Assembly: GCA_030390025.1 (NCBI GenBank)
Contig: CM059431.1
Span: 119,166,001-119,230,000, forward strand
Reading direction: 5' to 3'
Origin: Squalus acanthias
Taxonomy: Eukaryota
Length of the DNA: 64,000 nucleotides
Numbering within the stretch: position 1 is the stretch's first letter; the number at the start of each line of letters is the position of its first letter. Both the position numbers and the translations under genes were made by a program. Shown here piece by piece: positions 13,688-60,854 of the stretch. Below the pieces are notes generated by a model. That model had not been told where the DNA came from, searched no databases, and worked only from the letters and a program-made list of their open reading frames with translations.

Positions 13688-13790
13688 ATAAAAACAGAAA
13701 ATGCTGGAAATACCCAGCAGGTCAGGCAACATCTGTGTTGAGAAAAACAGAGTTAACATTTCAGTTCGATGACCTTTCGTCAGTTCTGAG
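13688..13790 (-). repeat. Penelope-like terminal repeat with hammerhead core
   Basis: Minus strand CTGACGA-AAGGTCATCGAACT-GAAATGTTAAC; copies at 36390, 44752, 46560, 48165. Confidence 0.6.
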
Positions 13791-14849
13791 GGTGATGTTC
13801 CTGCAGCTGACTATCTCAGCCACTTCTCTCTTCAGGACTGGTGATTGCTCAATTTTGGAATCTTCCTGCTATTGGTGGGAAAGAGAACTTCCCTCCTCAC
13901 CCTCACCTCTTTGACCAGGACCTCCAAGGAGGCTTCAGTAAACCTGAGGCCTTTAAGAGGTGCATTCCCACTTTAAGCCTCTGGAAATGGGAGGACCTCC
14001 TGTCTCGATGTGATTGGGTGAGAAACACGGCAGTCAAATTAGCCCTGGCTTAAAATGCAAGCCAGAGAGTGTATTTCGCATTTGCCTCACCCAACCAAAA
14101 CCCTCTCGGAGTTAAAATCGACCCCAAGGTCTTGATTAGCTTATTGATTCTGTTAATGTTGTATCTTATCTAAACATACAAAGTCTCCTGATTCATTATT
14201 TTTCAAAGGGAGAGTGATGTTTTACAAAATTAGACCTTTAATGCTCGATGCCAAAAACCAATCAGTGGATATTTTACTGAACTAATGCTGTAACAGGGTT
14301 ATTTAAACTGACTGCTATACAATTCGCAAGCCCTAATTAGACACCATGTAAATTTGCTTTGTTATGTCAATGCATGTCTACTTCCAACTATTTGCAATAC
14401 TCTACTTTTCTGTTGCATAAAACATTAAATCAGCGTTAAATAATTTCTATTATTGGTGAACTTTATCATCAAATGTATTCTGACAATTAAAAAATGCATA
14501 TAGAACCTGCTGTATCTGAATCATGTTATAAACTTTTTCATAACTTGGATCAGAACAAATGAACATTCGACTATAATTTATATAGGATGCTAAGTTCCTT
14601 AAAAACCCATAGCAGAAAAAACTTGATTACACCTGTGTGCCAATCCTTTGATAATATTACTACACAGTAACGATGTCTATCTTTGATAAAATCAAATCAG
14701 TATTGGGCATAAATGTCATTGGCAATAATAAAAGCGGATGAAAAGCTGATGAACCTAAATGTTAAATGTCATTCCTCAATAAAGCTCTCAGAACGCAACG
14801 TCAATGCTAACATTTAGGAATTATAAGAGGTGTGTGCATCTATAATATT

Positions 14850-15613
14850 GGCCCTGAAAATCCGTTCCCTATGGGTGTGTACGCGCTGTGTACTCACCCG
14901 TAGGGCCAACGGAAGTGCCGGTTTCGCGCATGCACTGCGGATGCGCTGGAAACCGGAACTTCCGTTCTCTTGAAGGAAGGGGTTCACAGGTGAACCGCGT
15001 GTGCCGGAGAGGCAGCGCATAAGCATCGAACTTCCGTTTTTTTCTCAGTTGATGCAGTGCGGGTAAGTCCCTAGCATCTGCGCGTGGAAAAAGCAGGCGC
15101 AAGGCCTGCTTTTAACAAGGTAAGAGGTGAAGAAAGTAAAAGTAAAACATTTTTTCCACAGGTTTATCATTTTAAAATACTTTAAAGAAAGGTAAGTTTA
15201 TTTTTAGCCCCGTTAAAAACATCAATTATTTTTTTCAAAAATTTAAATTTTTGTTTAAAGTAGTTAATTTATGTAATTTATAGTTATTTTAAAAATGTGA
15301 TGTTTTTTAAAAAAATTATTTGAAGTTTTACTTAGGTTTTGGGGCCGATCTCTATTCATAGATTTGACAGGTCTTCCTGTCAAATCTATGAATGGAGATT
15401 CCCTGCTCCGATTGGCTCCCCATGGCCCACGTGATCCCAGGGACGCTGCGAACTAACTTTGCCCCTGGGATACGCGAGCACTGCGCACCGGCAGCTGGAG
15501 GAGGCCCAGGAATGGAATTCTGCACGGGCCAAGAGCATAACGGTAGGCGTGCTTCTGAAGTGCAGGTCGGGGGCTTGCGCCCGCAGGAAGCCTCCGACCG
15601 GAATTTCTGGGCC
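14850..15613 (+). mobile_element. Harbinger-type MITE (family B)
   Basis: TIR GGCCCTGAAAATCCG vs GGCCCAGAAATTCCG; ATT on both flanks; GC-rich ends with AT-rich core; homologous to 26688-27452. Confidence 0.85.
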
Positions 15614-17538: not shown

Positions 17539-19373
17539 GGCCGGAATTTTGCTGGCACTCAGAGGACTGGTTTGGAGGCGGGTCTGCTATCAAAATAGCA
17601 AAGATTGACAGCGGGTAGGAAACCTGCTGTCAACCCGCCTCCACGTGAGTCTCCCAGGTGTCGGGTCTGTCTGCGCAGAACTGACGCGACACCAAGCGGC
17701 GGGGGATACAATTGAGTTCATTAAATTACTTGTTAAGATCCAATTTAATGGTACTGTGAGGCTTCCTTCCAATTTTACGTGCTCCCCCACGGGTTACCCG
17801 CTGCTCAGGGAACACGCCAGCTCAAGCTGCCGTGAGTTGAGTCTGCTCTGATGTTTCTGATAAGCTGACAGCTGCAGAAGTGGTGTAAACGATGCCGTGT
17901 CACAGATGGTCAGTTTCAGAGCGCAGAAACTGTTGTTTACTGCATTTGTAATACATATAGAGATTTCTTTAGCTTGCAAGTGTTTAGAGGCAACTGTATA
18001 TCCAGTGCCACCTCATTGGAACAACCTCTCTCACCATTGACAGATCGCTTCTGTCATCTCACCTGCAGCTGACAGCTATTGCAGCAACATCGGTGCACTT
18101 GAAAAAATCAGACCTTGGTGCTCTGAATCATTCCACGATCAGCCCCAACACCAATATCACCAGGCACACCAACATCACCAACAACATCACCAACCTTCTC
18201 CGCCATCACCTGATGCTGCACAGGACAGAGAGCATCAGCACCTGATAACATTGCTGCCCGGGAGGCCAGCGATGGCATCACCATGGCCAGATTTACTTCA
18301 CTTGACGCTGTACATCCTGGCTGCTACATGATGCACCAGGTTGACACCATCCCACACCAGCACCGTGAAGCATCCCTTTAATGTCCAAGCCATTCCGTGC
18401 ACACTCATCACTATAGCGAGGGCAGGGGGAGGGGGGGGTGGGGGTGGGTGTGGGGCGGGGGGGCGGGGGGGGGAAGTTATGTCTCAGCATTCACTGGAAC
18501 TCAGTAAGACACTTCTTAATGTGCGCACAGATCTGTCCAATAAGGGGCAGTGTTGGAAAAATAGATTTCACTGTCTGACAACACATTACCAGAAACTTCA
18601 CATGAACATTGGCTAAACCTCTCAAGTGCCTACCCTTGTGTGTTGTTAGTTCATATGCTTGCAGTACGATGAGGGTGAGTGTGACGGGTGGCTAGTGAGA
18701 TGGGGAAGTGATAATGTAGATAGAGAGGGATGGGTGGAGGTGCAAGGTAAGTTGGTGTGAGTAAGGATGTGCAGGAGAAGGGTATGGAAGGCAGAGTGAT
18801 GGGGATGTGTTGAGTCGCACAGCAGGATGAGGTTGAGTGTGGCTTTGCAGTAACGTTTCATGATCCACTGAGATCATTGAAAGGTTGGCACCACTGCAGC
18901 CAGGGACCCCTGACGACATCCCTGCTTTTGCCCTCCTGTGCAATCTGCAACCAGGCTGCGTTGGTGTCCTGGGGAGGTCTCTTCTGCCCTTGGAAAGGAA
19001 GAGATCCTCCCTGCGTGCTGTGACTCCCTCCATAAGCATATGGAGGGAGTCATTAGAGAGCCTGGGTGCAAGCGTCCATCTTTGTGCAGTGCTTGTCAAT
19101 GTTTGCAGGACCTCAATGCTGTCAAACACTGACAGAACAACAGTCAAACTCAATTTGGCTGTGGTCCCTTTAAGGAAACCGGCTGCTGACGCGTCATCAA
19201 ATGACATCATCAGACCCGCTTCCTGTTAATTGGCCGGGAAGCCCGTAGGGCGGGCTTAACAAGGCCAATCGAGGGAAATCCCTTTGACAGAGCGGCTGCA
19301 GCCAGGATCGTGACTGGAACCCAGAAACCAGCTCTGCCGTCACCATCCCGACACCGCTGATAAAATTGCGGCC
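17539..19373. mobile_element. Non-autonomous Harbinger with internal deletions in both genes
   Basis: TIR GGCCGGAATTTT/GGCCGCAATTTT; flanks AAC/AAT; transposase start fused to its end (+, ~18110-18300); Myb exon 1 APRLSNDSLHMLMEGV (-, ~18860-19080). Confidence 0.8.
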
Positions 19374-28844: not shown

Positions 28845-29380
28845 TTGATCAGTCGATGAAGACGTCCTGCAGAATCTGACATCTGATGTCCCTTGCGGCA
28901 GCGACTGCGGTCACAACCTGAGTAGCATTGCAGATGAACTGGATGTCCTGGTAATGGAATTTCTGTCTACTCACATACATCGGCGGCTGCTCAGTTGGTA
29001 CCTTCATTGCCACATGAGTGCCGTTGTGGCACCCTGCACCCTGGGGAACTCAGTTCTCCTGTAGAAGTCCCTGGCTCTGTGCCTCTGCAGCCTAGGAGTG
29101 ATGCACGTGTCGAAGAATTCAGCTGCTTTATGAAAGAGGGCAGCCTTGACAGCTCTTTGGCTAATGTTGCACAGATGCCTTGTGGCAGGCTGGAAGGATG
29201 CAAAGCTGTAAAAGTTGAGGGCTGCAGTCACTTTAATTGCCACGGACAAAGCAGTTGTGATAGTGCAATGAGTGCAAAGATTTTCATGATGAAGTTGACA
29301 GAGATGCTCAATGGCATCCTTGGATGTGTTGTGAAAGGGCCAGTGTGGCCTTACACATGCTAGGAAGGGGAACACCTAGT
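28845..29380 (-). pseudogene. Harbinger (HARBI1-like) transposase remnant
   Basis: ALSVAIKVTAALNFY..ASFQ...LCNISQ matches [24 protein letters not shown] of the copy at 51.6 kb. Confidence 0.7.
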
Positions 29381-32513: not shown

Positions 32514-34396
32514 ATGGGGAAAACATTAACGGATAGTTGGCCAGTTTCAGGTGCTACCAATACCCATTAAAGGAAAGAATCGCCCCATGCTGGGAGTTTT
32601 GTGCACCAGAGCAAGCAATAGTATTAGGCAACGAGAGTAATGTTTTAGACCCTGGTGTGAATGGGCGAAATGTGATGGATGAGAGGATAGCCGACTATGT
32701 GTTTGGGAAGGTTAACTTAACCAAAAGGTGGATAAGTGACCTGCTGATGGATAAGCGTCCGCTAGACGCCGCCATCAAATGGACAGGCAGTAAAGAACAT
32801 AAGAAGTCGGTAGAGAAAGCGGTCTGGCTGAGGTGCTACAAGAAGCAAGTCCAACTTTCGGACCAGGCCATTGCAGCACAGGCAGCTCAGATCAGGGAAT
32901 TGGGAGTTGAGATGGAGGAAAAGGTCACGGGAGGACAGAAACTCATTGCATCCTTGAATGCTTTACATCAGGAACGCCAGATAGTAGCCAACCACCATGA
33001 GACTAAAATTGATTACCTAGAGTGTCAGGTCACGGAATCAAAGTTAAACGAGGGTAGGATTAGAGAACGGTGTATCCGCCTAGCTAACCAGATAAAAGCC
33101 CAAGAAGAAAGCTTGCTGGGAGTTAGGGCGGCATACAAGATGGCCCTCGAGGATAGGCATGAGGGAGCTGACCACAGTGTTTGCCAGAAGGAGATAGGGA
33201 ACCTAAGAGAGGCCCTGAATAAGGCAAACGGCATGGTGTGCCTCATCAGCCCGTCAGCACACCAGCCACAGGTGAGTAGGTAATTCCCAAAATCCCTACC
33301 AGACAAAGCAGAGGAGGTATTTGCCACTGCACCCTCCGCGCCACCCAGCTATTCGGCAACCTGGGTAAGGAAGGAAGTGGTGGAAATAGAAGAGGAGGTC
33401 CCCGAGGTAGGACAATCCCCAGAGGTAGTGTCAAAGCCGGGACCGTTGTGTCCGCTCACAGGTCACAAGAGGGGCCCAAACGGAGCCAATGGGGAGGACG
33501 GGGATGTCCTGAACCAGCTTGTGTTGCCTCACAGCTCACACCAGTTGAGAGCGATGATTAGTCATGTACGGAAGCTGTCTGAGTCAGACGACCCTTCCGT
33601 ACACTTCAGGGAGGTAGAACAGACCGCAGCAATTAATGGCTGCGACGATGTGGAAAAGACTAAAATGTTGCTGTTCTCGTTAGATAGCTCGATCCTTCAG
33701 TGTCTCTCAGACGAGAGCAAGAGGGGAAATAATACCTATGAGGAGTTAAGGGACGAGGTCCTAGAAGTGTTGGGGGCGGATGACGAAGGTCCGTTCGTTA
33801 GATTGGGTCAGACAGTTGAGATGGAGGGAGAACCCCCGAAGGTTTTCGCCGACAGGCTGTGGCCAGTATACTAGCGTAGCTGCCCAGGCGCGCCAGCGCG
33901 CGACGATCTGGATGGTGTCGGTTTAACTCATTGGCTCAGGTGTTTTGTAGCCAACAGTTTGCCAGCCATCAGGGAGCAGGCCAAAGCGTGGCTTGATCCC
34001 ACTAACCCCGCCACAACAGAGGAGTCGGTCCTAAATCGACTCACCATAGGGTATCGGAACACTAGGAGCATGGGAGCGCGTCCCCTTAAGGTGCATGAGG
34101 CACGGCCCGCAGCCCCGGCTCAAAAGGAGTGGCATCAGGAGGGAAACCGCGCCCCACAGGCCAGTGGTGCTTGTTACGGGTGCGGAAAGACAGGTCACTG
34201 GCGTAAAAACTGCAGGAATCCCTGGAAGGATTCCAGGGAAAAAGCTCCCGCAGTCCGAACCCAAGCGCCTGTCTCTGAGAAAGGAGCTGGTGTGCCTATC
34301 CATCCCGATGCGATAGAATCAATGTTGGGAGCCATGCGGTCTCTTATGATTTCGCACGGGGAGGTAGCAACAGCCCCATACAACCCAGACTTCTGA
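32514..34396 (+). pseudogene. gag: Gag polyprotein pseudogene (coiled coil, PSAPPSY late domain, capsid-like region, CCHC knuckle)
   Basis: ORFs 32537, 33377 and 33959 share one frame, separated by single stops (33281, 33872); CYGCGKTGHWRKNC at 34172-34213; ATG 32514 joins via a 1-nt frameshift. Confidence 0.8.
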
Positions 34397-35290
34397 CTGG
34401 AACCGGTGCAGCCTGCCTACCTGTGTCCCCTTGAAAGACGCGCACAGGAGGGGGTCTCCTGTAAGGAGGCCAGGTTAAAAGAGCAGGCCTTACGGGAGGA
34501 GAACGCCCGCTTAATGGGGAAAATAGATGGGCTGGAAGGGCAGCTTAGAGCCATGGTAGCAGAGTTGCCCAAACTAAAACAGGATAGAAATCTGCAGCCT
34601 CCAGCAGGTGAGATTTCACAGAAACAAGCAGGGGTGGTGGCCTGTCTTAGGGGAGGGGCCAGACCTGCGAGTGGGGACTCTCAGCCCCAAGCAGGACAGC
34701 AGGGCACACAGACCGGTAAAGCAGCCTGCGTGAGGGGAGAGGACATTCTAGGAAAGTGTAAGATCTTTTCTTGGGGTTGGGATTCCGATGAGGGAGAGCT
34801 CGAGGAGCTCGACCAAGATAGTGACCCGATCGGAGAGGTGCTGAGATCGGAGGACGAAAGGTTCGTCCTCGACTCAAGCTTAGGGGAGATAGGGATTGCG
34901 AGTGGAGATCCACACAGGGTGGAATCAGAAACTGCAGGTCCCGAGCCCAGGGGGGCGGAGCTAGGGGAGACGGAGCCAGCGGCTGTGGTAGGACCACAGG
35001 TCGTGACGGTGGAAGTCTCGGAACCCGGTCCGTCAGCCCTGGAAGTCTTGCCCTTGGGGGAGGTAGGGATTGCGAGTGGAGGACCACATACTGGGCCAAG
35101 TAGGGTGGTACCAGAAACTGCAAATCCCGAGTTCAGGGAGGCGGAGCCAGGGGAGACGGAGCCAGCGGCTGTGGTAGGACCACAGGCCGTGACGGTGGAA
35201 GTCTCGGTACCCGGTCCGTCGGCCCTGGAAACCTTGTCCAATGTAGCCCTCCGTAGGTCAGTTCGGACACCCCAGCCCAGGAAGGCGTAG
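34397..35290 (+). CDS. ORF in frame with gag: coiled coil, acidic/Pro-rich duplicated segment, integrase-tail-like LRRSVR end
   Basis: 294-aa ORF directly after TGA 34394; no protease DTG/DSG, RT YxDD or integrase core seen. Confidence 0.5.
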   Translation: MEPVQPAYLCPLERRAQEGVSCKEARLKEQALREENARLMGKIDGLEGQLRAMVAELPKLKQDRNLQPPAGEISQKQAGVVACLRGGARPASGDSQPQAGQQGTQTGKAACVRGEDILGKCKIFSWGWDSDEGELEELDQDSDPIGEVLRSEDERFVLDSSLGEIGIASGDPHRVESETAGPEPRGAELGETEPAAVVGPQVVTVEVSEPGPSALEVLPLGEVGIASGGPHTGPSRVVPETANPEFREAEPGETEPAAVVGPQAVTVEVSVPGPSALETLSNVALRRSVRTPQPRKA

Positions 35291-43859: not shown

Positions 43860-44720
43860 ATCATTAATTTTCTGCCTCTGAATCTACCTTGGAGTAATGC
43901 TCTGAGTTTCCATTCCATGCTCCTCTGACTCTAAAGCAACTGGAGGCACCTTTTTTGGCATCTCCATTTCCAGCCCTTTCTGAATCGCAAAGTTGTGAAG
44001 GGAACAACAAATAACCAGAATGTGGGGGACTCACACAGCATATTGCAGTGCCCCTTCTGATCTGTCCAAGGCAGTGAAGCCTACCCTTCAGGTCCCCTTT
44101 ACAGTTTTCTATATCCAACTTGAGCTGATAAATGGCCCTCATTGTTGCAACGTTCTCCTTGTGTTCAATGTCCACAGCAGCAAGGGTTAATCCATACCAC
44201 TCAAAAACCATTAAGAACTTTGAATTGATTAAAGGCTAGAATTCCTCAGCACACAGATATGATGGTAACAGCTGGGTGTAAATTTGGCCTTCACATGAAG
44301 AACTCTTTGCAGCTGGTAACAGACAAATTGTAACTTAAAAAAGTGGTATCCTTTTCTGTTGAGAAATTGTAAAGGGTTAACTGTTGGAGCTCTTGGGACC
44401 ATATGAATATCATCAATGGCACCCAGACTTAGGGGTAACGTGCAACAGGATAAAACTATATGGCCCTATCACACAGTTGCTTTGGAGTCATCTCAAAGCA
44501 AATTAATTCACAGCTATTCTGAAGATTATATCTGTGATTTAGTCGAATGCATGCCCAGCAGGCACCACCTGGGATATTGCACAGGTCCCCCGTTGCAGCT
44601 TGAAAGACATCTGGGGAGAAAAAATTGATAATTGTGCTGACTTTGACAGTCACTGGCATAGTATTCCAACTGATGATCTGGGCTGATGATCTTTCAGAAG
44701 CTGACAAGAGTTCATCTCGA
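43860..44720 (-). pseudogene. Old Harbinger transposase remnant
   Basis: Minus-strand GAIDDIHM...FLNRKGYH and CL(G)DRS..ALQY-like segments; convergent with the Myb remnant. Confidence 0.6.
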
Positions 44721-44751
44721 AAAGCTATATACGGCGGCTGCTGTAAATCTG

Positions 44752-46630
44752 AAAGAAAAGCAGAAAATGCTGGAATTATACAGCGGGTCAGGCAGCATCT
44801 GTGGAGAGAGAGAAACAGAGATAACGTTTCAGGTCGATGACCTTTCATCGTTCTGACAAAAGGTCATCGATCTGAAACGTTAACTTTTTAAAAATTCGTT
44901 CCTGGGATGTGAGCGTCGCTGGCAAGGCCAGCATTTATTGCCCATCCCTAATTGCCCTCGAGAAGGTGGTGGTGAGTCGCCTTCTTGAACCGCTGCAGTC
45001 CGTGTGGTGAAGGTACTCCCACCGTGCTGTTAGGGAGGGAGTTCCAGGATTTTGACCCAGCGACTATGAAGGAATGGCGATATATTTCCAAATCAGAAAG
45101 GTGTGTGACTTGGAGGGGAACTTGGAGATGATGGTGTTTCCATGCGCCTGCTGCCCTTGTCCTTCTAGGTGGTAGAGGTCGTAGGTTTGGGAGGTGCTGT
45201 CTAAGAAGCCTTTGTGAGTTGCTGCAGTGCATCTTGTACATGGTACACCCTGCAGACACGGTGCGCCGGTGGTGGAGGGATTGAATGTTTAAGGTGCTGG
45301 ATGTGGTGTCAATCAAGCGGGCTGCTTTGTCCTGGATGTTGTCAAGTTTCTTGAGTGTTGTTGGAGCTGCACTCATCCAGGCATGTGGAGAGTATTCCAT
45401 CACACTCCTGACTTGTTCCTTGTAGATGGTGGAAAGGCTTTGGGGAGTCAGGAGGTGAGACACTCGCTGCAGAATACCCAGCCTCTGACCTGCTCTTGCA
45501 GCCACAGTATTTATGCAGCTGGTCCAGTTAAGTTTCTGGTCAACGGTGATCCCCAGGATGTTGATGGTGGGGGATTTGGCGATGGTAATGCCATTGAATT
45601 GAAGGGGTGGTGGCTAGACTCTCGCTTGTTGGAGACAGTCATTGCCTGGCACTTATGCAGCACGATTGTTACTTGCCACTTATCAGCCCAAGCCTGAATG
45701 TCGTCCAGGTCTTGGTGAATGCGGGCATGGACTGCTTCATTATCTGAGGAGTAGCGAATGGAACTGAATACTGTGCAATTATCAGCAAACATTCCCACTT
45801 CTGACCTTATGATGGAGCGAAGTTCATTGATGAAGCAGCTGAAGATGGTTGGGCCTAGGACGCTGCCCTGAGGAACTCCTGCAGCGTTGTCCTGGAGCTG
45901 AGATGATTGGCTTCCAACAACCACAACCATCTTTCTTTGTACTAGGTATGACTCCAGCCAGTGGAGAGTTTTCCCCCCCGATTCCCATTGACTTCAATAT
46001 TACTCGTGCTCCTTGATGCCACACTCAGTCAAATGCTGCCTTGATGTCAAGGGCAGTCACTCTCACCTTACCTCTTGAATTCAGCTCTTTTGTCCATGTT
46101 TGTACCAAGGCTGTGATGAGGTCAGGAGCCAAGTGGTCCTGGTGGAACCCTAACTGAGCATTGGTGAGTAGGTTATTGGTGAGTAAGTGCTGCTTGATAG
46201 CACTGTCAATGACACCTTCCATCATTTTGCTGATGATTGAGACTAGACTGATAGGGTGGTAACTGGCCGGATTGGATTTGTCCTGCTTTTTGTGGACAGG
46301 ACATACCTGGGCAGTTTTCAACATTGATGGGTAGATGCCAGTGTTGTAGCTGTACTGGAACAGTTGGCTAGAGGCATGGCTAGTTCTGGAGCACAAGTCT
46401 TCAGCACGACAGCCGGGATGTTGTCGGGGTTTTAGCCTTTGCTGTATCCAGTGCGCTCAGCCATTTTTTCTTGATATCTTGTGGAGTGAATCGAATTGGC
46501 TGAAAGCTGGCTTCTGTGATGCTTCATCCACTCGGCACTTCTGGATGAAGATGGCTGAAAACTCTGTTTCTCTCTCCACAGATGCAGCCTGACCTGCTGA
46601 GTATTTCCAGCATTTTCTGTTTTTTTATTA
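44752..46630. repeat. Palindromic Penelope-like relic split by a LINE
   Basis: 44752-44850 is inversely repeated by 44851-44884 plus 46560-46630. Confidence 0.65.
44885..46558 (-). mobile_element. CR1-group (L2/Crack-like) LINE, RT region to 3' end, frameshifted
   Basis: YHPISLVSIISK, ALDIKAAFD, GVPQGSVLGP, FADN. Confidence 0.92.
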
Positions 46631-48414
46631 AGAGTTCATCTATGTCCTTTCTAGTGAAACTTATTCTTCTTACACAATACTCCTACATACTCTTTGCATG
46701 TGCTAATATCTGGTTTGATTCATCCTCCTTAACTGCGGTTACACACTCCTTAGCTCCATTCTGATTTCCCCCTCCATTATTAATATAAGATCAACCCCCA
46801 TAGAGAGACCCATGCGTCTAAGTTTAAAAAAAAAAGATTTCTCAGACATAGCACTTGTAACTGGAGGTATCCTCAGAACTCCCTTCACCTAAGTGGCATA
46901 CAATGCAGCACTTCTGCCAGGATCAGCTGATTCTAGCAACTCCGTTGCTTCTGTAATGAGTGTTAGCTGCACTGGTTGATAAAACTAGAAACATCAACCA
47001 ATAATTTGCATATTATTTAAATGACTTTGCATTTGAAGGGTCAAGTGGAGTAAATGGTCCCCCAACCTTACTGGGAAATATGGCGAACCGAAAACATGGC
47101 AGAAACCCGGCGGAAACCATTTTCTCCCCAAATTGTGGCTGTGAAAAAGCCATTTTTCCATAATTACACATCTGGGTCCCTATAGTTAACAAATAAATTC
47201 AGGACCTTTGTTTTTTCAATATCTTGGTTGAAGCGGAATGAATGAGGACAGAAAAATAAAAGCATTTGGGCAATGATCTATAATGATCCAATAATAACCT
47301 AATTTTATCACTTAAGTTTTGATTATCTTCATAATTTTTCTATTTGCTTAACACTGGACTCCTACTCTAGCCCTGTCCTCATAGGTCATACTGCAAAGAT
47401 GTTACAGCAAATGTCTTTTACAGAAAGGATGTTTTATAGGTTTTTCTTATAAAAAGCAATCAATAATCAACATATATTCACTAGAAGTTTCCTCAAGGGT
47501 TCTCCTGATTGGTTGCTGTAACTTTGGTGGAAGATTGGAGGAAATCCTGTTAACATGGTGAATGAGGGGGTTCCCGCCAAAGTTACAGTGGCCGATCGGG
47601 AGTAACCCCAAGGAAGATCCCAGCAATAATGTCAGAGTTGGCAGAGAGTGATTGTCATGGTAATAATTAACATCCCAGCATGTTTTATTAGGAGACAGAG
47701 GGATGATGAAAGCATGATACAGAGGCTAAATGATTTATCTAGTTTGCTATCCTCTATTTCAGCATAAAACGCCATAAGTGGATAAGCATCCTTTCAAGAA
47801 TTCAAGCTTTTAATGCGTAAAACATGAAATGAGAACAGCCATTCGACCCATTGAGCTTGCTCCTTCCACACTCTATTTTAAAGTGGATGCTACTCCACCC
47901 TTGTAATCTTCTGAAGGAATGTTTTGCATCAGTACTCCGAGATCCCCAAAGGTGATCATAGAAACTCCAGTTTATCTATCCAGAAATATCTCTTATTCAG
48001 GCCTGATCAACTATCCTCCACAGATACCACTCTTTCCTGAGCACAGAAACACATTGTGGGCCAGCCAGTGTTTGATTGTTTCAATCATTACTGATCCCTA
48101 TAGTTTTCAAACCCATTCCCATCTGATATTTGAAGGAATTAAACAACACAGCTTCAACTGTAATAAAAACTGAAAATTCTGGAAACACTCGTAGGTCAGG
48201 CAGCACTTGTGGAGAGAGAAGCCGAGTTGATGGGCGGAATTTTCATTATCAGGGTGATTCGGGTGTGGGCAGTCGGCATAGCAGCTCAGAACCCTGTTCT
48301 TGTTTTCATTCCGCTCCTAAGAGCGACTTTCCCTTAATGGCGCCTATTAAGGCATGCCTGCGCCTGCTGGGCCCTATTAAATGGTGCGGGTCTGATGGCA
48401 TCATCGATGACTCA

Positions 48415-50455
48415 TTTCCAGGCTGTGCCCAGGTTCTTAGATGACTCCCTACATATACTTGTAGAGGGAGTCAGAGCATACAAGGAGGTCCTCTTCCCTG
48501 CTGATGGGCGGAAGAGACCTCCATGGGAGACTAAAAGAGCCTGGCTGCAAATTGCAGAGGAGGTGAACAGCAGGGATGTGGTGAGGAGGACCTGGATGCA
48601 GTGCAGGAAGCATCAGGACAGTGGGGGGTTGCTCCTGATGCTTCCTGCACTGCATCCAGGTCCTCATCACCACATCCCTAAGCGCACCCAGCACCAGCGC
48701 AGATACGCACACCTCAGTGGGTCCTACGTGAGATAGAATAGTGTTGTCACCTGGTGTCTCACAAGTCACAAGTGGGCAAGAGGAGATGGTGAAGACAGGG
48801 ACAGCAGTGGGGACTCCTCGCTGGAGGGTGCAGGACGCTCCCAGCTCTGCTCAGCTGCATGCAAATGCTGAGCCTCGGGGGCAAAGCCACACTCACCGTC
48901 ATCCTGCTGTGCCTGTCACCACATCCCCATCAATCTGCCTTCCCAAGCCTGCTCCTGCAAATCATTGCTCATACCAACATACCTTACACGTCCACGCATC
49001 CCTCTCGCTCTATCTACATACTCACATCCCCCGCTGACTAACCACCCCTCACACTCACCCTCATCTAATGCAATCATACCAACTAACAACATAAAGGAGG
49101 CCACTTTGCATTGGCACTTTGGCATTGGTGCCACACTCCCTCATAGTCAACATCTACAGATGTAACCCACACATTCCTTACACTCATGCCATCACTCTCA
49201 CTCAAACATCTCTTCTTTTCCTCCTTGTAGGAGAAGAGAGCCCACAATAAGAGGGAGAGGGAGAGAACCAGAGGTGGCCCTCCATCATTCGCAAAGTTGA
49301 CAGCAGAAGAGGATGTCACCCTGGAGGTCTCAGGAGTTGCAGAGCAGCTGACAGTCACATGGCATACAGCAGTCACTCATATGGGGACTGATGTCAGCAG
49401 CCAGTGAATGTTCATCATGTGCATAATGGTATCGTTACCCATTCTTGATAGTACATTTCTAAATCATCTCTTTACTCTCCCACAGGTTCATCAGGAGCAC
49501 CCCCCACTGTCCAGGCAGAAGAGGAAGACACCTCCTCAGAGGAGCCTGCAGCCTCAGAGGGCGCACCGTCACCAGACCTAAGTGCACCCAGCACCAGCGC
49601 AGATACACACACCTTGGTGGGGCCTACGTGAGATAGAGTAGTGTTGTCACCTGGTGTCTCACAACTCACAAGTGAGCAAGAGGAGATGGTGGAGACAGGG
49701 ACAGCAGTGGAGACTCCTCGCCAGAGGGCGCAGGATGCTCCCAGCTCTGCTCAGCTGCATGCAGACGCTGAGCCTCGGGGACCATCCAGAAAGAGGACGA
49801 TCCTGGAGATGCAGGAAGAAGTGCAGGAGGCTTTGACAGGTTTTGCGACTGCGATGTCTGGAAATGTGCAGAGAATGGAGGAGTCCATCTCCAACATGAG
49901 AACCACCGTGTCACAGGCAATGGCGATTGTAGGCTCTTCCATGGAAAGGATGGCAACCTGCATGGAGCAGCTAATGCGCCACTCACAGGAGCACATGGTC
50001 TCTATGGAGAATAGATGGCAGAGGCCCATAGACCTCCTCTCTGCGAGGGTTGTCAAATTTGACTTGGTTCCTCATGGCCCCACTGCTGTGCAGCAAAGTG
50101 CTCTCCAGCTCCTTGCTAGCAGGGAAGTGCGTGTGGCCCATGAGAGGGATGATGGTGAGAGGGGACATGGAAGTGGGGGCTCCTCTCAAAGCGCACACAC
50201 TTCTCCCCTGTTGTCTCCCCCTCAGTCAGAGCCCCAGATGCCTCATTGGATCGCGATGGCCGAGTCTCCCCCTGCACAGTCGCAAGAGGAGCAAACTTTG
50301 GCGGGGCCATCAGAGGCTCCAAACCCAGAGGACGTCCGCCAAAAGTGTCTATGCAGTCGCAGCAGGGAAGTGAGCAGCCTGCCTCTACCTCTGCTGACAC
50401 CACAGGGGTTGCGCCTCTTGGAAGCGCACGGAAACGAAAAATGACACACAAGTAG
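48415..50455 (+). pseudogene. Harbinger Myb/SANT-like DNA-binding protein, 3 exons, rearranged
   Basis: PRFLDDSLHILVEGV...AWLQIAEEVNS...RTWMQCRK; exon 2 at 49231 (ttgtag|EKRAHN); exon 3 at 49486; C-terminal PRGRPPK and RKRK. Confidence 0.85.
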
Positions 50456-50767
50456 ATGCAGAAGGGTAAGCACTTGGGTGTATAAAGAACTGTTTCTTTT
50501 AAGGTTCCCTTACTCTTATGTCATATATAAAACTATTTATTTTCACCACTTTCCAGTCATGCCCATTTTTGTCTGATACTTTTGGAAGTGGCCTAGTGAG
50601 TTGGAGTGAATGGTGAGACATAACGTTACCTCCAGCAATGGGGGTCAGTGTGAAAGGAATGTTTTGGTCATTGTAGGGATGCTTTATGGTGTTGTTGGCA
50701 GGGGGGGCGGGGGGGGAGGGTGTACCTGGCAAATCATGTGGCGGCCATATGGGTGTAATGCAGAAAG

Positions 50768-51988
50768 TTAAATAAATCTGGCCATGATGAGGCCATCCCT
50801 GGCCTCCCGGGCAGCAATGTGCTCGGGTGCTGCTGGCATCTGGACCTCAGGTACCTCCTGCTCCTCCTCTTCTTCCAGCTGATGCTAATGCTCCTCCTTC
50901 ACCTCTGAGGCTGTGTGCTCAGTGCCTTGCTCCTCATGCAGCGTTAATCCTCGCTGCTGCGCTATGTTGTGCAGGGCACAGCAGACGACAGGGATTCTGG
51001 ATACCATGGCTGGTGCATACTGAGGGGCTCCTCCAGATCTGTCAAGGCATCTGAAGTGCATTTTCAGCATGCCTATTGTTTGCTCTATGACACATCTGGT
51101 GGCTTTCATGATATCTCTCCTCAGCCTCAGTACATGGTCTCCTCAAGGGTGTCATGAGCCACGTCTTCAGAGGATAGCCCTTGTAACCAAGCAGCCAGTT
51201 GGTAAGTCTGTTTGGCGGTGCGAAGAGCTGAGGGAGAGTGGACTGGCGCAGGACAAAAGAGTCATGACAGCTGCCAGGGTATTTGGCACACGCAGTCATA
51301 ATCATCTTTTTATGGTTGCAGATGAGCTGCACATTGAGGGAGTGGAACCCTTGTGGTTGACAAAGACTCCTGAGTTATGATAGGGTGCGCTGATGGCCAC
51401 ATGTGTGCAGTCGATGATGCCCTGCACCCGTGGGAAGCCAGCCAGAGCAGCAAAGCCGAGCGCCCGCTGAGTAACACTGGCTTCATCAGTGTCAAAATTG
51501 ATATAATTGGCTGACTTGTCAAACATGGCATCGGTGACCTGTGTGATACATCTATGGGCAACCGACTGTGAGATCCTACAAATGTCTGCTGCAGATCCCT
51601 GGCAGTACTCTGAGGCGAAGAAGTTGAAGGCACTGGTGACTTTGACAGCCACTGGTAAGGCGTGTCCATCAGGTCCTCTGGGCTGCAGGTCTTGCTCCAG
51701 CAAACTGTAAATGTCTGCGACAACCTGGCGCAATGGCCTGTGCCTCCTTTGGCACTGCTGCTCAGTCATGTTGAGGAAGCTTATCCTCTGCCTATATACC
51801 CTGTGTTGGGGGTATCGCCTCTGGCGCGGTGCAGCCCTGCGCTGATGCCCTCTGTCCTGTGGAGCATCAGGTCGTTGAGGAGAAGGTTGTTGGTGCTGCT
51901 GCTGCTGGTGTGCCTGCTGCTGCCCGTGTTGGGGCTCATCCTGGTCCTATTCTGAGGACCAGGGTGAGACAGTATAAAAGGCGTCCAT
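50768..51988 (-). pseudogene. HARBI1-like DDE transposase, frameshifted
   Basis: [31 protein letters not shown] (expected GDxGY, D>Y), [26 protein letters not shown] across shifted frames. Confidence 0.92.
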
Positions 51989-53529
51989 GCTGATGTAATA
52001 GATGGCAGGTCAAGTAGAGATCAGAGGACCAATCTGGCAATGGAGTGATAGATAGTAGCAATGCGGTGAGAGTGACTTCGAATCTGCAGAAAAGATTTGC
52101 AAAGTGTAGTCACCTAAATCTGTGCTCAAAATGCACTCAGCAGGAGCCTTTCCCTTAGGCAAGTAAACAGATGTCATGTGGCAGTATTTTTTGTGCTTTC
52201 CATGCTCTGCAGTAATGACCTCGATCAATGGCCACTGAACTTCCACCTCAGCTTGACAGACATGGATCCCGAGCTGCGTGATTCCCGTGGTTAGGCAGTG
52301 AAATTGAAAAGGTCTGATTAAAAGCACTGTTATGGGTCTGACAACAAGGTAGTAATCAAATAAATTAGGTTGCCCGCCTCTGCTGTTTGGGTCCGTGCCA
52401 CACTGGCAAATGTGCCCGAGTTAAAGACGCTCCCATTTATTGCGAATTTTACTCCCGGCCCATCTCCAATCCCACCTGCACGGCACCATAAAAATTCCGG
52501 CCAACATTTCAGGTCTTAGGACCCTGATTTAAATATAGTAAAGAGGCTCCCGCGAGAGCGTGGCTGCCCAAATTGAGGCCAACTCCAAAAATGTATTGAG
52601 GAGTCTTGGGCGGCAAGTGAGCAGTAGATTTTCTTTACATTTTCGTCTCACTGCTGCCTCATTTATGCTGAAAAATGGGGCGATTGTGAGATGAAAAATC
52701 ACTCCATTGTCTACTGGCTTTGGCCAATCAGATTGCTGCTTTTGTTCCATCTATTAATGTATTTTGTTTGTACATCTTGGTGTAATCTTATACGTAAGTT
52801 ATGCAACAACATTGTAGACAGAAATTTTTAAGCCTATGATACAATTTTATAAAATTTAACAGGCTAACTTCAGGTGAAAATTCGGCTGAAAAATGTACGA
52901 TAAAACTAAACAGTAGCCATCTTTTAGCCAACAACTTATGTGAACATGGAAAATAAACATTACTGATCTTCAACAAGCAAAAGTACAACACTTATCCAAT
53001 GTTACTGGTTTGTAATCAAGAATTGTTTTCATTGCAAGATGATATCCCATTGAGAAATGTGCACTATATATGCACAGATGTCATAACACTCAATGTTTTC
53101 TCCTAGATGTCACTTGGAGGGTAACATCTGGATTGTATTCCAGTGGCTGTCATCATCTATGCTCTAGGCAAGGCAAGATGTTAATTAATTTCTCCAAGGA
53201 ATAGACATGAATTAACCTCAAAAGGGAAATTAAAGCAATATATGCAGATTAGAAATCTGTGGTACAAAAGCAATTGAATCCCACTCCATAATTATGCTAC
53301 GATGACAAAATAATAATTGCATAATAATAGTTTACTAGTGTAATTGATCTGCTTTTGGGGATAATGTCAAGATTTCTTTCACCTGTCTGTGGAAGTTAAA
53401 GAGTGGCGACTGATGCAAGCAGAAATAAATTAACTCAAAGAGGTTCTGATGATGTTGTGAAGTAGGATAGGACTTCTCTTGCTGTTCATAGCCAGAGGCT
53501 TTGCTGCCCCTATTAGAACAAAGATGATT

Positions 53530-54255
53530 GCCCAGATTTTACGGTGCGCGTACGCTGTCGGACCCTTCAGAACGGCCCCGCAAGCTCCGGGTTTCCACAC
53601 GCGCTGCGCACGCGCGAAAACCCGGAACTTACGATCTGTCAAGTTTCGCTTGGACAGGTCCACCGCATCCGCTACAAAATCACTTTCGCTGGTACAGAGT
53701 TGGGTTATTTGCCCAACTACTGCCCAGCGAATGCCCACAAAATCCTTACGCCTGCTAAAAGGAGGCGTAAGGCCTTCTTTTACCAGCGTTAGAGTTAAAA
53801 TAAATGTTAAAATACATTTTTTTAAATGATTTAAACATACACATACATATAAAATTAGTTTAGGTACATTTTGGCCCATTTTAAAATGTTTAAATTCATT
53901 TTTCAAAAAATAAATTTTTTATTTTAAATGCTTAATTAAAAGGGTCTTTTAATTAATTTTGAACATGGGATCATTTATTTTTATTTAAGTGGTGTGAATT
54001 CTTACTTATTTGGGGATTTCTATTATGCTTATGAGGATTCTGTATATAAATGGAATCCCCATAAGCATCATAGGAATCCCCCTTTTTGATTGGTTGGCCT
54101 GCCCCACGTGATCCCTGGGATGCTTATGAGCTGCCTGCGCCGCTGGAATCCGTGGGCCTTGACGCAGGCATATGCCTACAGGCCCAGGACACGAATGGCT
54201 CGATTTTCCCAGCCCCGAGGAGGCGGGTTTGGAGGCGTGCGAGTTGTTAAAATCG
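53530..54255 (+). mobile_element. MITE related to family B
   Basis: GC-rich ends with AT core; gattggttggcctgccccacgtgatccctggg shared with the copies at 15.4 and 27.2 kb; right TIR unclear. Confidence 0.6.
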
Positions 54256-54698
54256 CTAAAACTGGCGGGCGGGCCCGTTCCCGCCTCCATCCCGCCTCCG
54301 AGCAATTTTCCCAAGTGCGTGTTTTCTGACCCGCTTTCCATCCCGCCTCCAAGAGGTGGGATAGGTCCTTAAGGCCCTTAACAACCACTTAATTGCCTCT
54401 ATAATCCCATTTTGAGAGGCCTTTCCGATTTTAACACATTTCCCCCATCCTACACGCCTCCTCTGGAACACGGCAGGTAATCCTGGCGGCCTCACTAGTG
54501 GATTGCTTACGAACAGCTGCAGCTCCACCATTACAAAGGAGTTTTCACCAATGATCATTTGCAGGTGGCAGATCTTTGTTGTTTCAGGTCTGGGGGAACT
54601 TTTAGCAGGCATACTCAGTGTTGTGGAAGTTTGGAGCCTGACACCCATCTCCAGTGTGACCTCCTGGGAAACCCCTCTCCCCACCTTGACTAAGCGCT

Positions 54699-56671
54699 TA
54701 GAAACATAGAAGATAGGAGCAGGAGTAGGCCATTCGGCCCCTCGAGCCTGCTCCGCCATTCGATGAGATCATGGCTGATCATCCAAACTCAGTACCCTGT
54801 ACCTGCCTTCTCCCCATATCCCTTGATACCTTTAGCTTTAAGAAATATATCTAACTCATTCATGAATATATTTAATGACTTGGCCTCAACTACCTTCTGT
54901 GGTAGAGAATTCCACAGGTTCACCAATCTCTGGGTGAAGAAATTCCTCCTCATTTCTGTCCTAAATGGCTTACCTCTTATCCTTAGATTATGACCCCTGG
55001 TTCTGGACTCTCCGACCATCGGGAACATTCTTCCTGCATCTAGTTTGTCCAGACCTGTCAGAATTTTATATGTTTCGATGAGATCCCCTCTCATTCTTCT
55101 ATACTCCAGCGAGTATAAGCCCAATCGACCCAATCTCTCCTCATATGTCATTCCTGCCATCCCAGGTATCAGCCTTGTGAATCTTCGCTGAACTCCCTCC
55201 ATGGCAAGACCATCCTTCCTCAGATAAGGCGACCAAAACTGCACACAATACTCAAGGTGTGGTCTCACCAAAGCCCTGTACAACTGCAGCAGGACATCCC
55301 TGTTCCTATACTCAAACCCTTTCGCTATGAAGGCCAACATACCATTTGCCTTCTTCACCGCCTGCTGCACCTGCATGCTTACCTTCAGCGACTGGTGCAC
55401 AAGGACACCCAGGTCTCGTTGCACTTCCCCTTCTCCCAATCTATTGCCATTCAGATAATAGTCTGCCTTTCTGTTTTTGACACCAAAGTGGATAACCTCG
55501 CATTTATCCACATTATATTGCATCTGCGACGCTTCTGCCCACTCACCCAACCTGTCCAAATCATCCTGGAGTTTCTTGGTATCCTCCTTGCAGCACACAC
55601 TCCCACCCAGCTTTGTGTCATCTGCAAACTTGGAGATATTACATTTAGTTCCCTTATCTAGATCATTAATGTATATTGTGAATAGCTGGGGTCCAAGGAC
55701 TGATCCCTGCGGTACCCCACTAGTCACTGCTTGCCACTCGGAAAAAGACCCATTAATTCCTACTCTTTGCTTTCTGTCCGCCAACCAGTTCTCTATCCAA
55801 GTCAATACCTTGCCCCCAATCCCATGTGCCTTAACTTTACACGCTAATCTCTTATGCGGGACCTTATCGAAAGCCTTTTGAAAGTCCAAATACACCACAT
55901 CTACTGGTTCTCCCTTATCTATTTTCCCAGTTACATCCTCAAAAAATTCCATTAGATTAGTCAAGCACGATTAGACCTTTTGTAAATCCATGTTGACTTT
56001 GTCCGATCCTGTAACTGTTTTTCAAGTGCTCAGCTATGACATCCTTTATAATGGACTCTAGCATTTTTCCCACTACCGATGTCACGCGATGTCTGTAATT
56101 CCCCGCTTTCTCTCTACCACCCTTTTTGAATAGTGGGGTAACATTAGCTACCCTCCAATCCATGGGTACAGTTCCAGTTTCCATCGAATGTTGGAAGATG
56201 ATCAGCAATGCATCTACTATTTCTAGGGCCACTTCCTTAAGTACCCTAGGATGTAGATTATCAGGCCCTGGGGAATTATCGGCCTTCAATTCCGTCAATT
56301 TCCCTAACACCATTTCCCTGCAAATACTGATTTCTTTCAGTTCCTCCCTTTCATCAGACCGTATGTTCTCCAACATCTCTGGGAGGTTATTTGTTTCCTC
56401 CTTTATGAAGACAGAACCAAAATATGCATTTAATTGGTCTGCCATTTCTCTGTTCCCCATTATAACTTCCCCCGCTTCTGACTGCAAGGGACCTACACTT
56501 GATTTCACTAATCTTTTTCTCTTCACATATCTATAAAAACTCTTAGTCAGTTTTTATGTTCCCTCCAATCTTACTTTCATATTCTATTTTCCCCTTCTTA
56601 ATTAATCCCTTTGTCCTCCTTTGTTTAATCCTAAACTGCTCCCAATCCTCAGGGTTACCACTTTTTCTGGC
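54699..56671 (-). mobile_element. CR1 LINE, 5'-truncated, nearly intact RT region
   Basis: ORFs 55957-56526 and 54789-55964: LDFQKAFDKVPH, GVPQGSVLGP, FADDTK; frameshift between them. Confidence 0.95.
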
Positions 56672-57263
56672 TTCCTCAACTGAGGCATATACCAGAAGCA
56701 TGGCAAACATTTAATTCCTTTCCTCCTGGACATCAGATTCGGATGAAGACCAGCCGCGGCAGCAGCAGAACCATGAGCAACAGCAGCACCAACAGCAGGA
56801 GCATCAACAGGAGCACTAAGCTGCTAGTCACCCCTGAAGATGCACAGGCCAGAAGGCGCCAGAGTGCCACCATATTGCTGCCTGGGATGCAAGGGATGCA
56901 CTCATGTTGGTCACATTTGCTTAGCCTGCACAATCAAACAGTTTAGCCTCGCACCTTCTTACCAGAGCATCGACAATGGACAAGAACTTACGGATTCCTC
57001 TCACTCTGACCATCAAACTGACAATTGCAAGTCGCCCTTAGCCCTCAATTTAGAAGTCCCATTAGCAAAATGACACACACCACAACTGCAACAGTTTGCC
57101 ATCAGAATTTTTTATGACAATAAGCAACTGATGGCTTCTCAAAATTAAACACACATTACACCCAAGTGACAACCCTTTTGACTACTTGTGCATTATCTTC
57201 CTCTTACGCATGCTCCTACGTGGTGCTTCCCCTGTGGCTTCAGCAGATGTGGAGGCCCCTTGC

Positions 57264-59169
57264 TCACTTTCTTGCTGCTCCTGTCTCGACACCTTTGGTG
57301 GCCGTCCTCTGGGGTTGCGAACCTATGAGGACTTGGCAACAGTCTGCTGCTCCTGCGGACTGTGCAGGGGTTGAGACGCTGATCTCAGTTGGGTGGGGAC
57401 TCTGGTGGGGCTCTGACCGAGGGCTCTGCAGTGGCATGGTCGTGTGAGCGCTTGGAGAGGAGCCCCCACTTCCTTGTTGTATGCCACCAACATCCCTCTC
57501 ATGGGTCAGCCCCACTTCAGAGCTAGCAAGTGGCTGGACAGCACCTTGCTGCACTGCAGGGGGGCCATGAGGACCCGTTTCTGCACTGGAAGTCCTACTC
57601 CAGAAGACTTGCATGAAGGTCTGGTTTGTTTGCTCAATAGCTGACCATCGCTCCTCAAGAGATGTCAGTCTATTCTGAAAAATTACCGTGTTTTCCATAC
57701 CCTGGCGACTAAGCTCCTCCATGGACTTAGCCATCCTCTCCTCTACCGTCGCCATCCTCTCCTCTACGGCAGCTAGCCTTACCATGGAGGTAGCCATCCT
57801 TTCCACGGAGGTTGCCATCCTTTCCGCGGTGATGCGTTCATGCGCCAATGCCTCCACAAAGGCTCTGCTCATGTTCGCGATGGACTCCTCCATTCGCTCC
57901 ACACTCGCAGAGACGCTGGAGACAAAACCTGCCAGAGACTCCTGCACCTGTTCCTGGAGTTCAAGCACTGCTCTCCTTCTGGATGGACCCGGAGGCACAG
58001 GGTCGACATGCAGCTGAGCCGAGCTGGCAGAGTCCTGTGCCCTCCGACGAGGACTCTCCACTGCTGTCCCTGTCTCCACCATCTGCTGATGCTCACTTGT
58101 GAGCTGTGATACACCAGGTGACAATACTACTCTATCTCGCGAAGGTCCCACTGAGGTGTGAGTGTCTGTGCTGGTGCTGCGTGCTATGAATTCTGCTGAC
58201 GCTGCGCCCTCAGAAGTTGCAGCTTCCTCTGAGGAGTCTGGAAGCTCAGGCTCTTCCTCCTGGACAGTGGGTACGGGGGCTCTCGATGGTCCTGTGGGGG
58301 AGTAAAGGAAAGAGTTAGAGATGTGAGGTCAAGGTTACACGAAGATTGAAAAGTGCAGATGATCATAAGTCAATCTGTTAGAGCATCAGATTCATTATCA
58401 GTGACTCATGCAATGCCAATGAGAGAGATGCCAAACTATTCTGTCACCAGCTTTCTGTGATGCGCCCATCTGTCCGTCCCCCACTTGGGAATCCTCCTCG
58501 ATTCTGGCGATCTCCAGGGCCACCTCCTCCCAGGGGGTGAGCTGGGCTACTGAGGGTGGCCCTCCTCCTGTCATGGCTCTTTCATTCTTATTGTGGGCTC
58601 TCTTTTCCTGCAATGAGGGACACAAGTGGAGTTTGAGTGAGAATGAAGGAGTGAGTGTAGAGAATCCATAGCATAGATGCTTAGAAGGATACAAAGGACC
58701 CTCCCTGTGTGCTGAAAGTTGTTGTTGTCATGGCATCACAGTGATAGGGAGTGTGAGGGCTGCATGGTCGAATAGTTAAGTGAACGTGACCGTAGAGAGA
58801 GAGGGAATGGGTAAGGGTGCAGGCATATAAGTGTCAAGTGGCATGTGGAAGAAGAGGTTGGCAAAGCAGAGTGCTGGTGAGGAGAGGCGATGGGGATCAG
58901 ATTGAGGGTGATGGGAAAGTCATACTCACTTTTCCTGTTCGGAGAAGCTCATGAAACCTCTTCCTGCATTGCAGCCAGGTTCTGCGGCTCAGCGAGATGC
59001 AGCTGACCTCCTGGGCCACTTGCAGCCACACAGCTTTTGTCTGCTGGGGTGGCTTTTTTCTCCCTGAGGAAGGGAACAGCAGCTGCTTCCTGGATCTCGC
59101 TCCCTCCACCAGAGCTTGGAGGGAGGGCTCATCAAAGCGTGGAGCACACTTTGGCCTACTGCTGGACAT
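57264..59169 (-). CDS. Harbinger Myb/SANT-like coiled-coil protein, spliced ORF of 475 aa
   Basis: Exons 59169-58930, 58607-58448, 58291-57264 with GT-AG sites and matching phases (0, 1); no stop before 57266; tail appears frameshifted. Confidence 0.75.
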
Positions 59170-59509
59170 AGTTGATGAAGAAGGCGAAGACAGCAATGGC
59201 CATAAAGGTTGCAGTCTCCAGAAGAAGCAAGGCCTTAAATCCAGCTGCATTGATGACATCATTGGAGGCGACTTTCTGTCTGAAAAGACTCATTGGGCCA
59301 GGGGTTCCCACACACAGGAAATCAATTGGCCAATTAGGGGAAAATCCCACTTTTTCAGCACTTCAATTAGGAGTCGGGGTCCTGGCACGATTTCCACCTG
59401 ACACGCTCCAGCCCGCCCACACTGACAAAATCCAGCACGAAGAGTCTGAAGCTCTGGAGACACCAGGTAAGTTTGTATTTTTTTTTTGGTTCAGAGGCGT
59501 ATGCAAGCC

Positions 59510-60410
59510 TTGGACCACAATTTCCGGGCCGACATTTTTTTCTACTGAAAATGCACAGTAGCCAAAAATCCCGTTTACCCTCCTCAAAATTCACCTTTCT
59601 GAGAAATTTCAGCACACTGACAATTTACAAGCCTCTAAATCTGAACCGGCCAATCGGTTCACGGAAATCAGAGGAGATTGACCAAAATCTGTTAAAACTA
59701 TAGATAAGGGAGTAGAGTTTCCGCTTTGAGCGCAATCGCCGATTCCGGTGCAAATTGCATCCAAATTGCGCCCATTTTGAAAAGTGTTTTTTCTTCCTGA
59801 GTTTCTGCTCAAAATCATTTGCATATCGCCGATCGTAAAATCTGCCATGAACCAGCGCAATCGGCCAACGTTTTAAAACTTAATTTAAAAAAAAATGTTC
59901 TTTCAAAAAATATTCCTTGCTATATTTAAAAATGGTAACTTGGTAAAGTTTGATTCATGCAGCTGAAAATAGTTTATCACAAAAAAAAGCATTTTTAGTC
60001 ACAGTGTCAATCCACCACTTGAGTTACCCAATGTTAAATTACTTAAATGACTTTTTAAAAATATCCAAAACTATTTTCTAACTATATTGGTGTACAGTAG
60101 TCAGTTCCTTAGTAATTTTTTTAAAATTACATTCAAAACCTTTAAAATTAGTGTTCATGCGCCCAAAAGATCCAGCTTAATTCTTGAAGACTCCTCGAAG
60201 GCCTGCAAATGAGCGTAATAAGCAGAAAATCTCAACGGTAATGAATCCAACTGGGGGCATGTACAGTTTTGTGGGTGGGAACTGTTTCGAGCGCAATTTA
60301 AAAAAAATAGCATGGAAACTCGATTTGCACTGAACGCAATTTGCGTTTAAAATTCCACGATCTTTTGCGCCGATTTCGGGCGAATTGTGCCAAAAAAAAT
60401 GCCCAACTGA
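59510..60410. mobile_element. Probable non-autonomous DNA element
   Basis: CpG-rich ends with AT-rich core, as in the other MITEs; TIRs not clear. Confidence 0.35.
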
Positions 60411-60854
60411 GCCAGGGTCTGTACATCTAATAGAGTCTTTTTATTCATTCTATAGGTCCAGGAATAGACTCACCCCCAAACAATATTTGTTTGCTGGAAA
60501 ATGAGGGAGGGAAAGTAACAACTGACAAAACTGAAAACTACCACTAGTCAGGAAAAATGGGACAAGCTTTTATTGACTGCTTCACCAGGCATTCCCATAT
60601 GATCAGGGACTCTAGATTGGTATTACAGTTTCAAGTGAACCAGAGAATTGTTAGTGGATCAGAACTCTTAAACATAGAGAAGGGCTGAGCAGGTTAGGGT
60701 AAAATGTAATCCTAAAATTTGTCATTTGTATACTGTTTGGAGTTAACTGTGGGTTGTCAAAAGCTTTGGGAGTATTTACTTCTTGGTTTACTAATAATTT
60801 TGGTAGTTTTCAGTCTTTGGGCTAAAATGTAGGCTCTCTCTCCCGCACAATGGG

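Follow-up and report, generated by a model that had tools for sequence, protein, structure and literature searches.

Why does a Harbinger element that has lost its transposase still carry a long, open Myb gene? The locus that raises this question lies in Squalus acanthias, in a window of 64,000 nucleotides (the whole stretch of DNA that was analysed; contig CM059431.1, positions 119,166,001 to 119,230,000). Harbinger transposition needs both of the element's proteins, the Myb protein binding the ends and importing the transposase, according to the relevant passages of PMC9392472 and PMC9179366, the former citing Sinzelle et al. 2008 for end binding and import. An initial annotation, made from the sequence alone, had proposed either a Myb-only class acting in trans or early domestication, with a recent insertion as the fallback. 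We conclude that the locus is very probably a passively inherited member of a ~3.3-kb Myb-only, non-autonomous Harbinger family of sharks, and that it is decaying neutrally.

Structure of the element and its Myb gene

The copy under study (element A, 54196-59438) is bounded by 12-bp terminal inverted repeats (TIRs). The left TIR lies on the plus strand at 54196-54207 and has two mismatches against the shared consensus of the right TIR, which lies on the minus strand at 59427-59438 and beyond which summed contig depth collapses. A 3-bp target duplication, GAA, is found on the plus strand at 54193-54195 and 59439-59441, giving the insertion context ACAC-[GAA]-GAGT. The transposase-side terminal segment (54196-54699, plus strand) is split off from the rest of the element by a 5'-truncated CR1 LINE on the minus strand (54700-56669; 4-bp duplication; RVT_1, E=4e-22), which has an open stretch of 393 codons. 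The CR1 is nested in element A only, because contigs of the family join 56670 straight to sequence ending near 54699: the last ~30 nt of the terminal segment are read in loose contig ends before 56670 in 15 contigs of public run X8, one of X16 and two of X17 (runs described below). Without the CR1, element A measures ~3.3 kb. MITE-like segments with AT-rich centres adjoin both of its ends (53530-54190 and 59500-60420), and the left one weakly matches 15081-15356.

The transposase is reduced to two fused ends on the plus strand with the CR1 just upstream, as the initial annotation had described. A Q/H-rich N-terminal remnant (56700-56865) aligns to the N-terminus of the full-length transposase of a related element in the window (element B), and the last ~19 codons with the stop (56866-56924) follow across a contig-bridged junction. 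The DDE core belongs to the ~1.0 kb that is absent here; in the alignment of A with B, 1,012 nt of the element B transposase are without counterpart, and they are bounded by two 6-nt near-repeats. No Pfam transposase matched the remnant ORF of element A. Loss of an intron was rejected as the cause of the deletion, as neither strand of the missing segment begins and ends in GT-AG at the microhomology, and so was an in-frame mini-transposase, since by hand reading the two ends of the deletion place the microhomology in different codon phases. With its TIRs and 3-bp duplication, Myb/SANT gene, large internal transposase deletion and multi-copy state, element A is a solo-ORF Harbinger; the intact DDE transposase of an autonomous one is absent.

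The Myb gene has three exons on the minus strand. Exon 1 (58930-59169, 240 nt) encodes a Myb/SANT-like domain that matches PF13873, Myb_DNA-bind_5 (29.8 bits, cut-off 21.7; E=5.7e-7). It is followed by intron 1 (58608-58929, 322 nt, GTGAGT..TTGCAG), exon 2 (58448-58607, 160 nt), intron 2 (58292-58447, 156 nt, GTGACA..CCACAG) and exon 3 as read in element A (57264-58291, 1028 nt), which encodes an acidic linker, a heptad-like helix, a low-complexity region and ~31 out-of-frame codons. The donor of intron 2, GTGACA, deviates from the donor consensus GTRAGT. Repeat analysis of the window places the 21-bp tandem units that encode the heptad-like repeats (ERMA.. motif) at 57719-57825 on the minus strand; in one X8 contig the array is shorter by a net 42 nt (two units) at 57747-57791, so the number of heptad repeats varies in frame within the family. 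The joined exons (1428 nt) encode 475 amino acids plus the stop, and the Myb-domain aromatics and the GT and AG ends of both introns are kept.

In-phase joining alone says little for this model, because many other GT/GC-AG combinations also yield more than 400 codons. The three exons and their in-phase joining into 475 codons, claimed at the outset, are instead upheld by the exon coordinates together with XP_067827223.1, a RefSeq model of Heptranchias perlo (465 aa) that is colinear across both exon joins and matches the family frame end to end (39.7% over 499 columns). We treat the Myb gene of element A as a predicted spliced gene. In two runs guessed to be RNA, no joint matching either intron occurs among the 15 joints listed of 32, and three exon-intron borders are crossed unspliced by listed pieces (X16 record 15; X17 records 20 and 22); these contigs pool many copies and may be DNA.

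A full HMMER scan of 1.84 billion protein representatives with exon 3 as query gave 12 matches, and nine of the ten looked up are shark proteins (Pristiophorus, Heptranchias and Heterodontus); P0010, one of the 12, looks like a chance heptad match. Word-index protein searches returned zero matches for exon 3 and exon 1 alike, a PDB sequence search with exon 1 returned none at E up to 1, and a JGI metagenome scan gave 161 pattern matches, 0 of them confirmed. In XP_067851851.1 (P0011), a Heptranchias collagen alpha-6(VI)-like model, ~70 residues (795-865) resemble Harbinger Myb exon 3, which reflects either exonisation or a gene-model artefact.

The family and the decay of element A

Of 24 public runs listed, 20 contain this stretch; they come from 8 studies, under 7 organism codes plus one entry without a code, and none is recorded as RNA. 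Contigs of four of these 20 (X8, X16, X13 and X17) were placed on 56600-60000 at 90% likeness, and 32,123, 752, 15,782 and 913 contigs from the four runs fitted. In X8, bins 2-25, which lie inside the element, have a summed depth of 39,000-720,000, whereas the flank bin 59564-59677 has 7.28; summed depth is not copy number and serves here solely as a contrast, showing that a large repeat family stops at the TIR. The unique right flank is covered in X8 alone (59535-59790, one difference in 256 positions), and none of the listed pieces runs from the flank into the element. Shares of 0.55-0.66 in several organisms had been considered as deep conservation of one locus, a reading that was dropped as the contigs show a repeat family.

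The transposase deletion is common to many copies, under organism codes D, E and F. An X17 contig (record 17) spans the junction at 56778-56903, and junction-bridging contigs have a summed depth ~1000 times that of the flank in X8 and are also found in X13 and X17. Beside the junction, a 2-nt insertion at 56832 is carried by 7706.9 of 8101.7 units of depth in X8 and is also seen in X13 and X17, against 0 of 20.2 in X16. Loose contig ends, among the 24 listed of 1054, point to private deletions in element A near 58696 and 59230. The Myb-only class first proposed for this locus does exist in many copies, bridged as its junction is in D, E and F, but it is not a new one, since solo-ORF variants of Harbinger-Snek were already known (PMC8437027, in the part concerned with them).

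The family frame has 502 codons, and element A carries two lesions in it. A 1-bp insertion at 57359, private to element A, shifts the frame at codon 444; family contigs are without the extra base, with the omission accounting for 8631.5 of 8637.5 units of depth in X8, 154.6 of 154.6 in X16, 4486 of 4518.4 in X13 and 119.9 of 119.9 in X17 (>99% in each of the four runs). An assembly error behind this frameshift is not favoured, if weakly, by a depth in X8 of 6.0 with the base against 7.2 in the flank. The second lesion is a TAG at family codon 456 (57323-57325, minus strand), a position outside the 40 differences listed of 251. Because of the extra base the correct frame ends after 443 codons, and the rest of the 475, ~31 codons, is read in the wrong frame. 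The gene does contain 475 stop-free codons, as the initial annotation held, but with both lesions in the family frame it is not open in a meaningful sense; the frameshift that had been put near 57365 lies at 57359, and the TAG was correctly seen at 57325-57323.

What element A has lost is the conserved family tail PRGRPPK...RKRK (57182-57358, minus strand, stop at 57184-57182), which is out of frame here according to frame reading and shark models: XP_067827223.1 keeps it (PRGRPPK...RKR), and it is also conserved in XP_067860701.1. This tail may represent an AT-hook and a nuclear signal. The Myb product of element A would be tail-less at best.

Element A has 18 coding differences from the family among the 40 differences listed of 251, and all 18 were used: 13 are nonsynonymous and 5 synonymous, for a neutral expectation of 4.5 synonymous (P=0.49). 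One of the 18 sites, 57785, is polymorphic in the family, and two of the nonsynonymous private changes fall inside the Myb exon. A total of 165 places with other letters in X8 limits the divergence between element A and the family to about 5-6%. For divergences of 3-6% and the indel rates tried, 1.6-5.5 lesions are expected over 444 codons, and a run of 444 open codons has a probability of 0.004-0.21; element A is on the lucky side for open-frame length. Both lesions fall within the last 59 of the 502 codons (P=0.014, post hoc). The nested CR1 provides a control, a lenient one because it is younger than its host element. It has no reason to be selected and yet is about as open as the Myb gene, with two frameshifts in 626 codons against two lesions in 502, and the decay looks neutral.

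The initial annotation had named a dN/dS near 1 and ORF decay at the neutral expectation as results that would speak against its interpretation. The first is what the 13 nonsynonymous and 5 synonymous changes give, small as the sample is; the second holds roughly, given two lesions in 502 codons and the range of chances above. Its fallback, that recency explains the open frame, agrees with the data in the form of limited age plus chance.

We propose a two-gene, autonomous ancestor from which ~1.0 kb of transposase between short repeats was deleted, a loss visible at the junction and probably made by microhomology repair. Since both ends were kept, the proteins of other copies could move the derivative, and from known Harbinger biology it would have been mobilized in trans by their transposase and Myb protein; amplification in trans would have brought it to the high copy number that the multi-copy junction reflects. 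The Myb gene would have been carried along passively because the deletion left it untouched. Element A then inserted at GAA and decayed without selection, as recorded in its CR1, frameshift, small deletions and unbiased substitutions. Its long open frame may stem from low divergence of ~5% or less, from lesions falling by chance near the 3' end and from the choice of an open-looking copy, and a large family would contain many such open copies by chance. Supply or titration of the subunit in trans, as first suggested, is possible for intact family members.

Related elements and the shared breakpoint

Element B (48232-52502, plus strand; PF13359 and PF13873) belongs to a related Harbinger family and lies in the orientation opposite to element A. 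Both genes are present and both are broken, the transposase being full-length. At its border of exon 1 and intron 1, a second copy of 214 nt of Myb exon 3 has been inserted (48667-48880, 91% identical), adjoining a short inverted segment of exon 1. Element C (17539-19373, minus strand) is a divergent Harbinger, 54-57% identical to A in most blocks, whose transposase deletion has the breakpoint seen in A (~18236-18241 in C); Myb exons 2-3 found no match within 17539-19373. A third, more decayed Harbinger (12818-14125) has fragments of Myb exons 1 and 3, and its transposase stub breaks off elsewhere, a little way into the conserved core. Decayed Harbinger transposase fragments also lie at 29004-29375 and 43917-44863. 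A 1.4-kb TIR-flanked element at 6089-7481 has Harbinger-like ends and an AT-rich middle, with part of it a 70% match to the terminal region of B, and a gag-like retroelement remnant at 32537-35290 has four long ORFs in one frame with stops between them, a zinc knuckle and DUF7041.

The breakpoint common to A and C bears on an alternative that we consider unlikely, in which selection has maintained the Myb-only family over a long time and element A is a dead member of it. Copies expressing Myb would be moved more (cis preference) or would tune the transposition of their partners by supply or titration, and purifying selection on Myb would persist after transposase loss. Binding of the ends and import of the transposase by Myb, as related in the passages of PMC9392472 that deal with it, suit such a role, as does a family free of element A's frameshift. 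The junction aligns gap-free between A and C, with 54 of 81 nt identical, which a single old deletion could explain and simple random deletion does not predict. However, the flanks of the junction in C are closer to B (72 of 81), site patterns around the junction are B=C 19, A=B 7 and A=C 1, and in intron 1 B and C are the closest pair (81% versus 57-60%). Assuming equal rates, the grouping of C with the full-length B means that A and C underwent two separate deletions at one site. A 12/16 imperfect direct repeat underlies the junction; of 945 diagonals, 3 score higher and 25 at least as high, which makes a deletion hot spot plausible. As three sequences give no root, one old deletion shared by A and C, with a faster A branch, keeps about one chance in three.

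Selection on the Myb gene can be seen between A and B, where dN/dS is 0.26 in exon 1 (64 codons), 0.51 in the 5' part of exon 3 (155 codons) and 0.74 in its 3' part (68 codons). Such constraint argues for a selected lineage but is also expected of autonomous ancestors, and the signal may all predate the deletion; C, moreover, keeps the junction while showing no match to Myb exons 2-3. Synonymous distance between A and B also differs along the gene, at ~1.5 in exon 1 (58930-59169) versus 0.42 in exon 3 (57364-58289), which suggests mosaic ancestry or recombination between Harbinger families. In its fullest form the alternative would be an old, self-perpetuating shark Myb-only lineage with one transposase deletion shared by A and C, at least 20% diverged, in which purifying selection on Myb continued with no transposase in cis; such helpers or regulators would share the work of transposition with partners that carry a transposase. 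We hold this to be quite improbable. If Myb was indeed selected after transposase loss, such a family would be a plausible intermediate toward repeated domestication (NAIF1, MSANTD1-4).

Early domestication, in which the host would use the N-terminal 443 residues (Myb domain and helix) and tolerate or favour loss of the tail, is scarcely credible: the 443 in-frame codons, the Myb aromatics, the four GT/AG ends and the 3' clustering of lesions agree with it, but element A is not a single fixed, non-mobile locus, belongs to a high-copy family, keeps both TIRs and its target duplication, carries a private frameshift and has no purifying selection visible at its 18 sites (13 nonsynonymous to 5 synonymous, two of the former in the Myb exon), whereas the known domesticated MSANTD genes are syntenic with dN/dS below 1 in the parts of PMC9392472 that describe them.

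Comparison with known systems

Harbinger3_DR is reportedly an autonomous fish Harbinger. The autonomous fish PIF/Harbingers described in the pertinent sections of PMC9179366 share with the present elements short TIRs, a 3-bp duplication and convergent transposase and Myb/SANT genes; in contrast, the DDE core is deleted in element A, and its TIRs of 12 bp compare with the usual 25-50 bp there. According to the same sections, single-ORF Harbingers were not found in the teleosts examined, nor any Harbinger in the elephant shark; shark Harbingers are left open. Here, an abundant Myb-only Harbinger derivative is documented in sharks.

The shark Harbinger Myb-like model XP_067827223.1 is like the family in its end-to-end homology, colinear joins and tail, and unlike element A in that the tail is in frame. 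In other superfamilies, Drosophila KP and maize Ds are internal-deletion derivatives that outnumber their parent, and KP keeps a DNA-binding product. The family of element A resembles both as an internal-deletion derivative; KP is a repressor.

NAIF1 and MSANTD1-4 likewise have a Harbinger-derived Myb/SANT domain and no working transposase beside it, but in the portions of PMC9392472 devoted to them they are fixed, syntenic, expressed and under purifying selection, whereas element A is high-copy, has TIRs and shows neutral-looking changes. Caution is needed, as such copies will resemble new MSANTD genes in annotations. For the newt, Harbinger expansion and expression are reported without mention of a Myb-only class in the passages concerned of PMC5741667. 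A search of mostly open-access literature found no publication on this shark family, and the sea krait work alone on solo-ORF Harbingers.

That work is the nearest parallel. The solo-ORF variants of Harbinger-Snek in Laticauda, with 452 intact copies in L. colubrina and 6 in L. laticaudata, are multi-copy, encode the DNA-binding protein only, are attributed to large deletions and are thought to be non-autonomous (PMC8437027, as far as its account of these variants goes), all as in the family described here. Host and family differ, however. The shark breakpoint maps to microhomology, a divergent element has it too, and element A is not intact.
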